Part shown: piece by piece, positions 4,661 through 7,797 of the stretch | How the letters are laid out: each line of letters begins with the position of its first letter | Position numbering within the stretch: the stretch's first letter is position 1 | Source: a phage | Direction: 5' to 3' (one strand) | Sequence record: PV467748.1 | DNA length: 64,000 nt | Translations under genes and position numbers: made by a program | The notes under the pieces: generated by a model | What the model was told of the DNA's origin: nothing | What the model saw: only the letters and a program-made list of their open reading frames with translations | Database searches by the model: none

Positions 4661-5125
4661 TTATTTGATTTGTTTAGCAGACCAGATACGGTCTTTGATG
4701 ATTTTCTGAATATCTTCAACATACTCTAAGTCGTGAGCATGCGGATTATCTTTGAAGCTATGTGCTCGTGCCAGTTTCTGGCCTTCTGTTTTGATTACTA
4801 AAAGCTCTTTAAGAATTGCTTCATACTTAGAAATAATTCCTTTGGCGATATTTTTTTCTTGAGCGGCTTTAGGGTCCGCTTTTGTCGCAGGTGCTTTACC
4901 TGTAGCTTTCTGGAACAATTCACCTGATGCAGCTAGGCTTTTAAAAACTCGGCTAACAGTATTAGCATTAGTAAAACCTTCGGCTTTAAAATCTTTAATA
5001 AAACGGAAACGTTCTTCATCAGAGGCGTCTTTGTAAGAATATTTACCTGCTTGAATTGCTGCAATAGCAGCGGCTTTTACATCTGAACTAGATTGTTCGG
5101 TCAAAAATTCATTGTAAGTTTTCAT
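4661..5125 (-). CDS. internal head protein with capsid-targeting sequence (MKTYNEFLTE|Q), Lys/Ala-rich
   Basis: N-terminus matches the T4 IPI/IPII/IPIII capsid-targeting sequence MKTYQEFIAE with an L-x-E cleavage motif; basic composition like T4 IPIII. Confidence 0.7.
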   Translation of the reverse strand: MKTYNEFLTEQSSSDVKAAAIAAIQAGKYSYKDASDEERFRFIKDFKAEGFTNANTVSRVFKSLAASGELFQKATGKAPATKADPKAAQEKNIAKGIISKYEAILKELLVIKTEGQKLARAHSFKDNPHAHDLEYVEDIQKIIKDRIWSAKQIK

Positions 5126-5165
5126 TATTATTTCCTAAGTTAATTAACTTATCTATTTATTATGC

Positions 5166-5194
5166 CAAAAAGCCCCAACCTTTCGGAAGGGGCT
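5166..5194 (-). terminator. rho-independent terminator (variant of the GGCCC..GGGCC hairpin) downstream of the tRNA cluster
   Basis: Forward AAAAAGCCCCAACCTTTCGGAAGGGGCT; T-run on minus strand. Confidence 0.55.
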
Positions 5195-5244
5195 ATGCCT
5201 TGCGGCAACCTTGTCGGGGTTCCACCTGCTAAGGCAAGTGTTTG

Positions 5245-5576
5245 TACGAAACGCCGGGATTCGAACCCGGTTATTAAGTAGTTGACGCTACTCAATATTT
5301 TTAAAAGGCCATATCTCGACCATATCCGAACGTTCCGTCAAAAACGCTACTCGGCTTACGGCAAAGATATTTCCTCGAATCGATAATTCTGTGCGCCGTT
5401 TCTGCTGTGATGTAAGGGGACGTTAACAGATCGTAAAGATTTGTTAATGCCAGTCCTTACTCAGGGAACATCAGTCCGACGACTTACCGGTAGCGACCCG
5501 GTTTCTTGTTTGTTGCGCCGGTGAATGCTGGTAATCAGTCTTCATACGACGGCTTGACTATATAATAGTCTTCATT
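5245..5576 (-). ncRNA. untranslated region with tRNA-like 3' element; possible small stable RNAs (T4 species 1/2-like) or degenerate tRNA
   Basis: No ORF over about 330 nt; minus strand carries a perfect T-arm CCGGGTTCGAATCCCGG near 5251..5270 with pairable acceptor strands CGGAACG/CGTTTCG, but I could not fold a canonical D or anticodon arm. Confidence 0.3.
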
Positions 5577-5651
5577 TGGTATCCCGCCCTGGGATCGAAC
5601 CAGGACCGCAAACTTAGAAGGATCGTATGCTATCCATTACACCAGCGGGAC
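5577..5651 (-). tRNA. tRNA-Arg (anticodon TCT), CCA encoded
   Basis: Minus strand: acceptor GTCCCGC/GCGGGAT, T-arm CCTGG-TTCGATC-CCAGG, anticodon loop CTTCTAA, 3' ACCA; T4 encodes a tRNA-Arg(UCU); anticodon stem has one mismatch. Confidence 0.75.
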
Positions 5652-5656
5652 GTAGT

Positions 5657-5733
5657 TGGTGACCCAGACCAGATTTGAACTGGTAACCTTTCCCTTATGA
5701 GGGGACTGCTGCTAACCATTGAGCTACAGGGCC
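5657..5733 (-). tRNA. tRNA with CAT anticodon (Met or Ile-lysidine type), CCA encoded
   Basis: Minus strand: GGCCCTGTAGCTCAATGG...CCCCTCATAAGGG...GGTTCAAATCTGG...CACCA; anticodon loop CTCATAA. Confidence 0.75.
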
Positions 5734-5818
5734 TTAATTCTATTATGAAAGGCTCTTTGAGGGAAGAACCTTTGGTAATAGAGGGTATTAATGATAGAGT
5801 AATAATATCATATAATTC

Positions 5819-6295
5819 TTAAAGCATATCAAGTGCTTTCACATCAGGAATTTTAATTTCTTCTTCAATGATATACAGCTTGACATAAGAAATTACACGG
5901 ATAAAATCGCCATCATATTCACAAGCCATACCAAGGAGCTCAGTAAGGGCTTCATTCAAGTAGTATTCTTCCTCGTCGTCATTCAGCAAAGCTTCTAAGT
6001 CTTGGACCCAAAGGACTTTATCTAAAAATTCAGGAGTCAACTGGCCTGATTTTACACCAGATTCAATGTGAGCAATAACCAAGTGCTTAACTACGTCCCA
6101 TTCCGAATTACCACATTTATCCGGGTTGTTGCAATGCGAACCATGGAAAAGTTCTAGGATATATTTGTACTGTTGGATTTCATGTTCTTCTACGCCAAAT
6201 ACAGTCTGGGTTTTATAGTTATCGCCATCATTTTCCCAGGTTTCAATTTCAATCGCATAACCTTTAGGGATAGTTTGTCCGAATTTAATATTCAT
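5819..6295 (-). CDS. hypothetical protein
   Basis: ORF track 5819..6304 begins with GTG; trimmed to ATG overlapping upstream stop (ATGA). Confidence 0.55.
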   Translation of the reverse strand: MNIKFGQTIPKGYAIEIETWENDGDNYKTQTVFGVEEHEIQQYKYILELFHGSHCNNPDKCGNSEWDVVKHLVIAHIESGVKSGQLTPEFLDKVLWVQDLEALLNDDEEEYYLNEALTELLGMACEYDGDFIRVISYVKLYIIEEEIKIPDVKALDML

Positions 6296-6582
6296 TGCGG
6301 CCACATATTAATGTAATCAAGTTTAATAGAAGCAATCTTCAAAGGATTTTTAAAGATGTCGTATTCGACCAATCCGTTTTCAGTTGCGGTGTAGAAAGTA
6401 AAGTTAACAGAATTATAACGGCGACCATTAACTTTTAGTTTAACGTCGCTTGAACTACGACCAATATTAACCTGTTGGACATCAAGCACAGCATCTTTGC
6501 CAAAGTTGCGAATCAGTAGCTCTGCTGCAACCTGGTCTGAATTATATCCATTCTCTGGATTAGTAACCTTAACGTATAACAT
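6292..6582 (-). CDS. hypothetical protein
   Basis: ORF track; ATG adjacent to upstream stop. Confidence 0.55.
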   Translation of the reverse strand: MLYVKVTNPENGYNSDQVAAELLIRNFGKDAVLDVQQVNIGRSSSDVKLKVNGRRYNSVNFTFYTATENGLVEYDIFKNPLKIASIKLDYINMWPQ

Positions 6583-6984
6583 TTAACCCTCGTCTACAAT
6601 AGTATGGGTATTAGCATTAACAATCTGCCACCAGTCAAAACGATCGGAGCCGTAAAGAAACTTATTCTCGTTTTCTTTAACAATTTCACGTAGTTCATCT
6701 TCAGTGGCAGCTTTAGCGATTAAATCGGTATAGCCACCACGTGGATAGTAGTTATCACCCGCGAACAGAAGGAAATTTACTTTACCAGAAGGAACATATG
6801 CTTCCTTAGGATACTTGTTTCCTGCTTGGTCTACCACTTCAATATAACGGTAAGGAATATCAGTACTTTCAACCCATTGCCAAGCCGCAGCAGGGGATTC
6901 AAAAGCATCTACACCTAAACGGTTATCTTCATCTTTAGACGGATTATTTTCATAATCCGCATATACATAATATTCAACGTTCAT
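6583..6984 (-). CDS. hypothetical protein
   Basis: ORF track; TAATG coupling with upstream gene. Confidence 0.55.
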   Translation of the reverse strand: MNVEYYVYADYENNPSKDEDNRLGVDAFESPAAAWQWVESTDIPYRYIEVVDQAGNKYPKEAYVPSGKVNFLLFAGDNYYPRGGYTDLIAKAATEDELREIVKENENKFLYGSDRFDWWQIVNANTHTIVDEG

Positions 6985-7169
6985 TATTCACCTTTAGAGA
7001 TTTTATCCATAACGAAAGAAATTGAACCAATTAAGAATGCCACTACTAAAGAAATTATATTCTCGGAAGTTGAAAGCATATCGAGCATGAATCCTGTAAA
7101 CATACTAAAGCCAAAAGCGGTAACAGCGGCCAGTGCAGTAACATTTCTAATTAATTCACAACGTTTCAT
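6984..7169 (-). CDS. small membrane protein
   Basis: ORF track 6984..7181 begins with TTG; trimmed to ATG (MKRCEL...) after GGAG; two hydrophobic helices. Confidence 0.5.
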   Translation of the reverse strand: MKRCELIRNVTALAAVTAFGFSMFTGFMLDMLSTSENIISLVVAFLIGSISFVMDKISKGE

Positions 7170-7191
7170 TTTATTCTCCAATCACTCATTT

Positions 7192-7235
7192 GTTTTGATA
7201 GGACTATAGTACCATCACTAAAGCCCGTTGTAAAC
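7192..7235 (-). promoter_or_regulatory. conserved early promoter/leader element, copy 2
   Basis: GTTTAC-N18-TACTAT-AGTCCTATCAAAACA on minus strand, upstream of the 6984..7169 gene. Confidence 0.55.
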
Positions 7236-7237
7236 AA

Positions 7238-7510
7238 TTATTTTAAATAAATTGCATATTTTTTATAACCAGCTGTCTCGTGGCGCAGCCCTTTTTCATT
7301 AGCAAAACGTTCAATATTATTGATTTGATTCTGGTCAAGTTCTGACGTGTCAAATACAAAAAAGTTTCGCTTGTTGCCTAAAGTTACATGATTAGTCAAA
7401 TCGATGTTATAGAGATGATTTATATTATCAATCATGGTCTTAACAGATTTGTTAATTTTTGCTTCTTCATTAAGAATAGATTCAGCGATAAATTCTTGAT
7501 AAGTTTTCAT
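7238..7510 (-). CDS. internal head protein with capsid-targeting sequence (MKTYQEFIAE|S), IPI-like size
   Basis: ORF track 7238..7555 trimmed to MKTYQEFIAE, which is identical to the T4 internal-protein capsid-targeting sequence as I recall it. Confidence 0.7.
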   Translation of the reverse strand: MKTYQEFIAESILNEEAKINKSVKTMIDNINHLYNIDLTNHVTLGNKRNFFVFDTSELDQNQINNIERFANEKGLRHETAGYKKYAIYLK

Positions 7511-7535
7511 TTTGATTTCCGTGTGGTTGGTTTGT

Positions 7536-7576
7536 TTTGATAGGTCTATAGGCATGATACTATAGACCTTGTAAAC
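7536..7576 (-). promoter_or_regulatory. conserved early promoter/leader element, copy 3
   Basis: GTTTAC ... TATAGACCTATCAAAACA on minus strand, upstream of the internal-protein gene at 7238..7510. Confidence 0.5.
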
Positions 7577-7587
7577 ACCTTTTTAAA

Positions 7588-7797
7588 TTATTTTAGCCAT
7601 GAAGAATTTTCAGAGACCCAGCTATCTATATCTGATTGAGGGCCAAAGAAGTAGGCAACCCCATTAGATAGCTCTCCTGAAAGCCAATTTATACCTTTCA
7701 GGCTTTCTTTAAATTCTTCAGGAGTACAAGAAACCTCTATTGCCACCGAAGAGGCGGATTCCATTGCTTCTGTTAAGAATTCGCTGTAGGTTTTCAT
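7588..7797 (-). CDS. internal head protein with capsid-targeting sequence ([10 protein letters not shown]|A)
   Basis: ORF track 7588..7815 trimmed to [10 protein letters not shown]; ATG overlaps the stop of upstream 57B (ATGA). Confidence 0.65.

Follow-up and report, generated by a model that had tools for sequence, protein, structure and literature searches.

Since 2007, and more fully since 2025, it has been recognised that the internal proteins (Ips) of T4-type phages are injected factors against restriction. The T4 internal proteins' capsid-targeting sequence was reportedly described by Mullaney and Black in 1996, and Repoila et al. are said to have found in 1994 that diverse T-even internal proteins have only this leader in common, and to have named Ip9. 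To our knowledge, only four internal proteins have known targets, namely Ip1-3 (GmrSD variants) and one protein of the Ip6 family (McrBC). In T4 proteins are directed to the scaffolding core by the leader, which by itself is enough for foreign proteins to be packaged and which gp21 cuts off, and the internal proteins are diverse defence proteins that share only this leader (PMC3012670). Ip1, Ip2 and Ip3 of T4 are inhibitors of distinct GmrSD enzymes, one each (PMC12373910; PMC9391042), and Bas37_0260, an Ip6-family protein, inhibits McrBC (2025 preprint, HIDEN-SEQ; bioRxiv 10.1101/2025.11.20.689424). Silas et al. 2025 do not mention Ip4-Ip9. Here we analysed 64,000 nucleotides (nt) of phage DNA, one strand of record PV467748.1 (the window), in which three genes encode proteins of 154, 90 and 69 amino acids (aa) that begin with such a leader. 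We consider it likely that these genes encode T4-type internal head proteins that are packaged, cleaved and injected. The phage belongs to the T4-type myoviruses, genus Dhakavirus (JS98/WG01-like); over the 4.3 kb surrounding the three genes it is 93-97% identical to WG01, QL01, UGJNEcP3, phage 04086 and JS98, and the gene order matches in all of these records.

The original prediction placed three open reading frames (ORFs) with an N-terminal MKTYxEF in the window, and both the ORF list and a reading of the sequence bear this out: all three lie on the minus strand with the expected coordinates, lengths and N-termini. The back-translated leader pattern ATGAARACNTAYNNNGARTTY occurs exactly three times in the 64 kb (at 5105-5125, 7490-7510 and 7777-7797) and had no match in 100 dinucleotide-preserving shuffles. 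A six-frame scan of the window with looser peptide patterns did not find a fourth leader-bearing ORF. Longer in-frame upstream extensions exist for two of the ORFs (7555 ATG and 7815 TTG), but the MKTY starts are the ones supported, namely by a Shine-Dalgarno-like motif 6-7 nt 5' of each (AGGAA, GGAA and GAGGA), by PHROG profiles that align from residue 1, and by the homologues of the three proteins, all of which start at MK. In WG01 the Ip9 start directly abuts the stop codon of the preceding gene.

Each leader closes, as had been claimed, with the L/I-x-E motif, found at residues 8-10 as LTE, IAE and LTE. Residues M1, K2, F7 and E10 are kept in every family member, and distant homologues with otherwise altered leaders retain an invariant L/I-x-E endpoint. 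The three leader-coding stretches make up a family of 40-nt direct repeats (D1) that reaches about 10 nt 5' of the ATG. The copies differ synonymously (ACT/ACC, TAC/TAT, TTT/TTC, TTG/TTA and ACC/ACA), therefore selection acts on the peptide and not merely on the DNA.

The proposed match to the T4 internal proteins holds for IPII and IPIII, which begin MKTYQEFIAE, identical to the leader of the 90-aa ORF and nearly identical to the other two, and share the L/I-x-E ending. IPI begins MKTFKEFTST in the T4 record. Beyond the leader, the three proteins are mutually unrelated as predicted (BLASTP of residues 11 to the end, best E=1.8; shuffle z about 0), and in this they resemble T4 Ip1-3, small proteins that are likewise non-homologous outside the leader. 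In contrast to the leader, none of the three mature domains has BLASTP similarity to mature T4 IPI, IPII or IPIII. No significant family was found for any of the three proteins in Pfam or NCBIfam, and searches of PDB sequences gave no matches. Among the top PDB fold matches of the structure models of the 69-aa and 154-aa proteins IPI*, the inhibitor of GmrSD-CT596, did not appear. The matches that did appear were generic alpha/beta or ferritin-like helical folds (E>0.1) and were judged uninformative.

The window also encodes the cognate protease and scaffold, gp21 and gp22, together with the gp20 portal and the major capsid protein gp23, a context that is like that of T4 Ip1-3. The gp23 sequence GSFLTE/AEIGGD, which we take from established T4 knowledge to be its cleavage site, contains an FLTE that is also present in two of the three leaders. 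The features are collected in Table 1.

Table 1 Features of the window that bear on the three leader-bearing genes. PeSL, promoter/stem-loop element; z, z-score of the fold.
Feature	Position	Strand	Remarks
154-aa gene	4661..5125	-	leader MKTYNEFLTE; phrog_2280 'unknown function', E=3e-53
Ip9 gene, 90 aa	7238..7510	-	leader MKTYQEFIAE; phrog_7673 'internal head protein', E=2e-55
69-aa gene	7588..7797	-	leader (10 protein letters not shown); phrog_23867 'unknown function'
Leader-coding codons 1-10 of 154-aa gene	5096..5125	-	LTE = residues 8-10; repeat family D1
Terminator hairpin and U-run directly after 154-aa stop	4637..4658	-	-15.8 kcal/mol, z=-4.2
Late-promoter-like AATAAATA	5154..5161	-	1 mismatch to T4 late promoter TATAAATA; 28 nt 5' of ATG
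Terminator-like hairpin and U-run 5' of 154-aa gene	5166..5194	-	-18.2 kcal/mol, z=-2.6; likely 3' end of rnaC homologue
Second PeSL-like cassette, Ip9 to trna.4	7189..7250	-	TTTACA-N17-TACTAT with internal stem-loop
PeSL-like cassette 5' of Ip9	7531..7592	-	GTTTACA, 10-bp perfect stem-loop, then CCTATCAAAACAAA; families D4/D6; fold z=-3.9
Gene 57B = Acb1 (anti-CBASS phosphodiesterase)	7794..8249	-	Pfam PF23474 Acb1, E=8e-59; immediately upstream of 69-aa gene
gp21 prohead core serine protease	38912..39547	+	Pfam PF03420 Peptidase_S77, E=6e-103
gp22 scaffolding core protein	39578..40393	+	Pfam PF25623 T4_CASP, E=5e-90
gp23 codons 61-63 (LTE)	40595..40603	+	in GSFLTE/AEIGGD, maturation site of major capsid protein

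We propose that each protein is made with a ten-residue N-terminal capsid-targeting sequence, MKTYxEF(L/I)xE, which would steer it into the gp22 scaffolding core while the prohead assembles. The gp21 protease would then cut after Glu10 of the L/I-x-E motif and leave mature proteins of about 144, 80 and 59 residues in the head beside the DNA. These would enter the host together with the genome and thus would act before any phage gene expression. Most likely they would serve as stoichiometric inhibitors of those modification-dependent (type IV) restriction enzymes of the host that act against hydroxymethylcytosine (hmC)-type DNA. In JS98-type phages gene 42 (dCMP hydroxymethylase) is present and glucosyltransferase is absent (PMC2993671); because of this absence, their hmC DNA is a plausible substrate of McrBC and other type IV enzymes, and the restriction enzymes that matter here may be other than the GmrSD targets of T4 Ip1-3. 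By analogy with T4 Ip1-3 and the Ip6-family protein, the literature agrees with the earlier suggestion that the three proteins are candidate injected anti-defence effectors. The specificity, which that suggestion had left unknown, can be narrowed for the 69-aa protein by its probable Ip6-like fold. DarA, DarB and Hdf of P1 and the ejection proteins of T7 and P22 are alike in strategy, as pre-packaged proteins that are co-injected with DNA. They are, however, unrelated and differently incorporated, and have neither an MKTY leader nor gp21-type processing.

The feature as such is established biology and not a discovery, and no new principle is involved. What is new is that two unannotated families are seen to bear the leader and that the 69-aa protein is probably linked to Ip6; further increments are a third, conserved locus (that of the 154-aa family) and the leader-less Ip9 domain in other phage families. 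Which wild E. coli strains are open to infection by a T4-type phage depends in part on its injected internal proteins, a point that matters when therapeutic phages are chosen. The window supplies testable candidates: an Ip6-like protein in a phage without glucosyltransferase protection of its hmC DNA, Ip9 with an effector domain common to unrelated phages, and a very widespread leader-bearing 154-aa family that is 'hypothetical' in every database.

Profile alignments and a structure model indicate that the 69-aa protein is probably a divergent Ip6-like protein, although homology this remote is not proof of a common function. The functionally characterised reference, Bas37_0260 (77 aa; MZ501089), is leader-bearing, is encoded at the ipI locus of phage Bas37 (KarlGJung) and is 76% identical to VR7/VR25 Ip6; the Ip6 family is also present in T6. 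With the leader removed, Smith-Waterman comparison of the 69-aa family with Ip6 gave z=5-7.7 over shuffles, whereas all other Ip pairs were at about 0. Alignment of the mature parts only with hhalign gave a probability of 75% directly and 93% with CkP1_0157 as a bridge, this protein being an intermediate that matches both the 69-aa family and the Ip6 family at 94-96% probability. The common core consists of a helix and a beta-hairpin followed by GP-x3-I-x2-W-x2-(E/K)N. The AlphaFold2 (AF2) model of the 69-aa protein has a beta-alpha-beta-beta-alpha fold (predicted local distance difference test, pLDDT, 80). When BFVD was searched with this model by Foldseek, shared leader included, a member of its own family, a 78-aa bridge-like protein and VR7 Ip6 (E=2.5e-3, template-modelling score 0.70) came out on top, and everything thereafter had E >=0.15. 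A tblastn search with mature Ip6 did not reach the 69-aa family at E<=1.

The 69-aa protein is thus like Ip6/Bas37_0260 in leader, locus, size class (77 vs 69 aa), fold core and C-terminal motif. It differs in being acidic (predicted mature form of 59 aa, isoelectric point (pI) 4.1) and in having no basic C-terminal tail (FRKK). Since it is a probable divergent member of the Ip6 family, it would be the best candidate for a McrBC-type inhibitor among the three. Its family is confined to 29 phage records (Dhakavirus, EcS1, an Erwinia phage and Citrobacter Moonviruses), is called 'hypothetical' in all sources and is unannotated in JS98. In most of the 29 records the gene is directly 3' of 57B, but Citrobacter phage CF1 has a further leader-bearing gene between the two. 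In the window its ATG overlaps the 57B/acb1 stop codon (ATGA), so that a gene against CBASS (cyclic oligonucleotide-based antiphage signalling system) and the genes of the putative injected proteins form one small anti-defence cluster. RefSeq relatives label gene 57B 'RNA ligase'.

The 90-aa protein is Ip9, an orthologue of a named protein, with 77% identity at 100% coverage to RB15 Ip9 (UniProt Q38376; GenBank Z35082). Homologues of Ip9 are found in 200 phage records. Compared with Ip9 of the RB15, RB32 and VR type it is alike in length, leader and locus, and nothing of substance differs in the protein; the window gene differs in being preceded by a promoter cassette with an inverted hairpin loop. 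The predicted mature form has 80 aa, and residues 13-15 (LNE) make up a second L-x-E site.

The 154-aa protein appears to be a basic, helical and widely conserved internal protein, and its role, whether anti-defence or DNA-associated, is the least certain of the three. The predicted mature form has 144 aa, 15.9 kDa and a pI of 9.5. Its all-helical AF2 model (pLDDT 73) consists of a three-helix N-domain, a basic Lys/Pro/Ala-rich (PAK-rich) linker, KATGKAPATKADPKAAQEK, and a long helical hairpin. The family occurs in 512 phage records (Tequatrovirus, Mosigvirus, Dhakavirus and Yersinia phages), all annotated as hypothetical. Distant homologues have variant leaders (MLKFNEFLAE, MLEYSEFLKE, MKFKEFLIE and MISFNEFVDGNLITE) and some swap the C-terminal half; in some close relatives the leader is longer and contains two L-x-E sites (FLNEAVLNE). 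The protein has no match to a PDB fold or sequence. In a search of 1.8 billion representatives its profile matched only relatives in T4-type phages and one 869-aa pentatricopeptide-repeat protein (P0036, E=1.8e-4, 6 stretches), which was judged a chance resemblance between helical hairpins.

The 154-aa gene is a self-contained unit made of a terminator hairpin, (T/A)ATAAATA, a ribosome-binding site with the ORF, and a second terminator. Where the window has AATAAATA, WG01, Bas37 and JS98 have the canonical TATAAATA. This layout is consistent with late expression alongside head proteins. Beside the position of the gene, JS98 orf135 (205 aa; L002 913-1530) and bas37_0243 (187 aa; L007 29-592) are leader-bearing proteins with a loosely similar architecture, with MKTYAEFLTE and MKTYNEFLNESVLNE as leaders in bas37_0243 / JS98 orf135. 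As judged by its translation, bas37_0243 is distinct from the DUF7338 homologue. It is listed as 'essential' in HIDEN-SEQ (1/48 TA sites hit), an odd result for an internal protein that is missing from T4.

The literature describes two Ip loci (PMC12373910), and the site of the 154-aa gene is neither. Of the classical loci (57B-trna.4 or denV-e), the former, which is the T4 ipI position, holds the 69-aa and 90-aa genes. A WG01 orthologue of IPIII (MKTYKEFIAE/ASVGK...) lies between denV and e, a position beyond the left edge of the window. Four related Dhakavirus genomes, the window included, have four different cassette-like combinations of leader-bearing genes between 57B and trna.4: the 69-aa gene (ip69) and Ip9 in the window; ip69, an Ip8-like gene, Ip9 and Ip7 in WG01; the Ip8-like gene and Ip9 in UGJNEcP3; and ip69 with a gene for a 97-aa leader-bearing protein in JS98. 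In the JS98 RefSeq record nothing is annotated from trna.4 to 57B, though both the 97-aa ORF (L002 4442-4735) and the 69-aa gene (72636-72842) are present.

Between the cassettes lies a conserved element made of GTTTACA, a stem-loop, TACTAT and CCTATCAAAACAAA, which corresponds to the PeSLs, promoter/stem-loop shuffling elements of T4-type phages (PMC4122927). Such PeSL-like cassettes are also found 5' of ip genes in WG01, JS98, UGJNEcP3, Bas37 and CkP1. They came to light in a repeat analysis and on manual inspection, not in a fixed-spacing search for T4 early promoters. The 8-nt loop of the hairpin in the Ip9 cassette is flipped and matches exactly the reverse complement of its counterpart in WG01 (L001), JS98 (L002) and UGJNEcP3 (L003), TATCATGC vs GCATGATA. 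The 'ip7' gene of OLB35 (L006 1858-2091) is a mosaic of an Ip7 N-part (cf. WG01 Ip7, L001 4629-4937) and Ip9's C-terminal 35 residues (80% identity), therefore recombination also happens inside ip genes.

Several observations weigh against the view that all three genes encode packaged and injected inhibitors of restriction. The Ip6 link of the 69-aa protein is remote, with 22-25% identity between short proteins of small families. No canonical late promoter TATAAATA is present within 4.6-8.4 kb of the window, the ipI-locus genes are behind early-type promoters or coupled to 57B, and the inverted loop in the Ip9 promoter cassette removes the TACTAT -10 box. Literature searches, which extended to virion proteomics of Dhakavirus and of fHe-Yen9-01, found no virion proteomics or cleavage data for the three proteins or close homologues. 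The mature domain of Ip9 also occurs leader-less in Kagunavirus-like siphoviruses, and a 755-aa Kuttervirus protein ends in an Ip9-like domain of 80 residues. The 154-aa gene is at neither of the classical ip loci and is flanked by DUF7338/e.8 on one side and the rnaC/rnaD/tRNA cluster on the other; it is absent from T4, which has no gene at that position, and its family is conserved (70-99% identity) and not hypervariable. The Bas37 orthologue, bas37_0244 (74% identity), was non-essential, with no fitness change in the one host comparison consulted.

The relatives of Ip9 outside the T4-type phages could mean, though this is rather doubtful, that Ip9 is a general anti-defence module against a defence not specific to hmC or glycosylated DNA, to which T4-type phages fitted a packaging leader. 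Leader-less homologues are encoded by siphoviruses of about 44 kb; Bas70_0057 (72 aa; 53% identity to Ip9, with the alignment starting at Ip9 residue 19) stands first in a cluster of small genes that lies beside the replication genes and is oriented away from them (Bas70, PQ850619; L004 2504-2722). The Kuttervirus protein that ends in the Ip9-like domain (Salmonella phage pertopsoe gp086; L005 1-1758) is encoded next to structural genes. In view of these relatives the target of Ip9 need not be an hmC-specific nuclease, and the architecture of Ip9 is modular, a leader joined to a borrowed or shared effector. However, the leader-bearing Ips whose function has been characterised so far all inhibit type IV restriction enzymes. 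The Bas70 genome (a 43-kb siphovirus) annotates its leader-less homologue as 'internal head protein', probably an error of annotation transfer.

A different locus, conservation, the PAK-rich linker and its own late-type promoter mean that the 154-aa protein may be something other than a restriction inhibitor. One possible, rather doubtful, form of this idea is a packaged DNA-associated or structural protein of the head interior, acting in charge neutralisation, DNA condensation or ejection and not as a specific inhibitor of a defence. The pI of the mature form and its Lys/Pro/Ala-rich linker would suit such a role, as would the long helical hairpin that follows the linker, the conservation across the 512 records and the gene's own promoter and terminators; the distant paralogues JS98 orf135 and bas37_0243 share the architecture, and the latter scored 'essential'. 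On the other hand, the gene is wholly absent from T4, the Bas37 orthologue is dispensable, and T4 IPII and IPIII, long held to be basic DNA-binding fillers, proved to be specific GmrSD inhibitors (PMC12373910).

Taken jointly, and with some reserve since we hold the combination to be rather improbable, these considerations would make the T4-type leader a portable tag grafted onto more than one kind of effector. The Ip9 domain would be a cross-family anti-defence module, leader-less and cytoplasmic in siphoviruses and a C-terminal domain in the Kuttervirus protein, which T4-type phages made into a pre-delivered weapon. The 154-aa family with its architectural paralogues JS98 orf135 and Bas37_0243 would be a third, conserved and late-transcribed class of internal protein, with a role other than type IV restriction inhibition (DNA handling or ejection, or a different host target).

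That the MKTY leader is only a by-product of cassette recombination, with at least one of the three being a cytoplasmic early protein that is never packaged, is very unlikely: the extension of the D1 repeat 5' of the ATG, the recombinogenic PeSL elements that bound the ip cassettes, mosaic genes such as OLB35 'ip7' and the early-type promoters at the ipI locus would fit it, but the synonymous leader differences show selection at the peptide level, the invariant L/I-x-E endpoint is kept by distant homologues too and the leader alone suffices for packaging in T4 (PMC3012670).

Some further observations concern the surroundings of the three genes. The longest ORF at 4063-4722 (minus strand, 219 aa) and the end of the 154-aa gene overlap; the true gene is probably 4063-4617, encoding a 184-aa DUF7338 protein (MKLLKYL...), as annotated in JS98 and WG01. 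Homologues of the T4 stable RNAs rnaD and rnaC are found at about 5245-5506 (minus strand; 93.5% identity over 263 nt), where no Rfam family matched the window. They lie in the 450-nt 'non-coding' interval that separates tRNA-Arg from the 154-aa gene and are unannotated in the relatives inspected. A Logan contig (P0009) encodes a 94-aa chimera of the middle of trna.3 and the last 31 residues of the 154-aa family, joined at a KEN/KDN microhomology, which points to a natural deletion of about 1.9 kb that removed tRNAs, rnaC/rnaD and most of the 154-aa gene (vs window 6583-6984 and 4661-5125). At 8250-8279, the 3' end of gene 57A carries an exact 15-nt tandem duplication (TATTCTTCGTCAGAA x2) that encodes a repeated acidic C-terminus, ...SDEEYSDEE. 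Farther away, at 58161-63955 (minus strand), an ADP-ribosyltransferase exoenzyme domain like that of T4 Alt, also a protein that is packaged and injected, is encoded by each of three genes in tandem (707, 694 and 524 aa).

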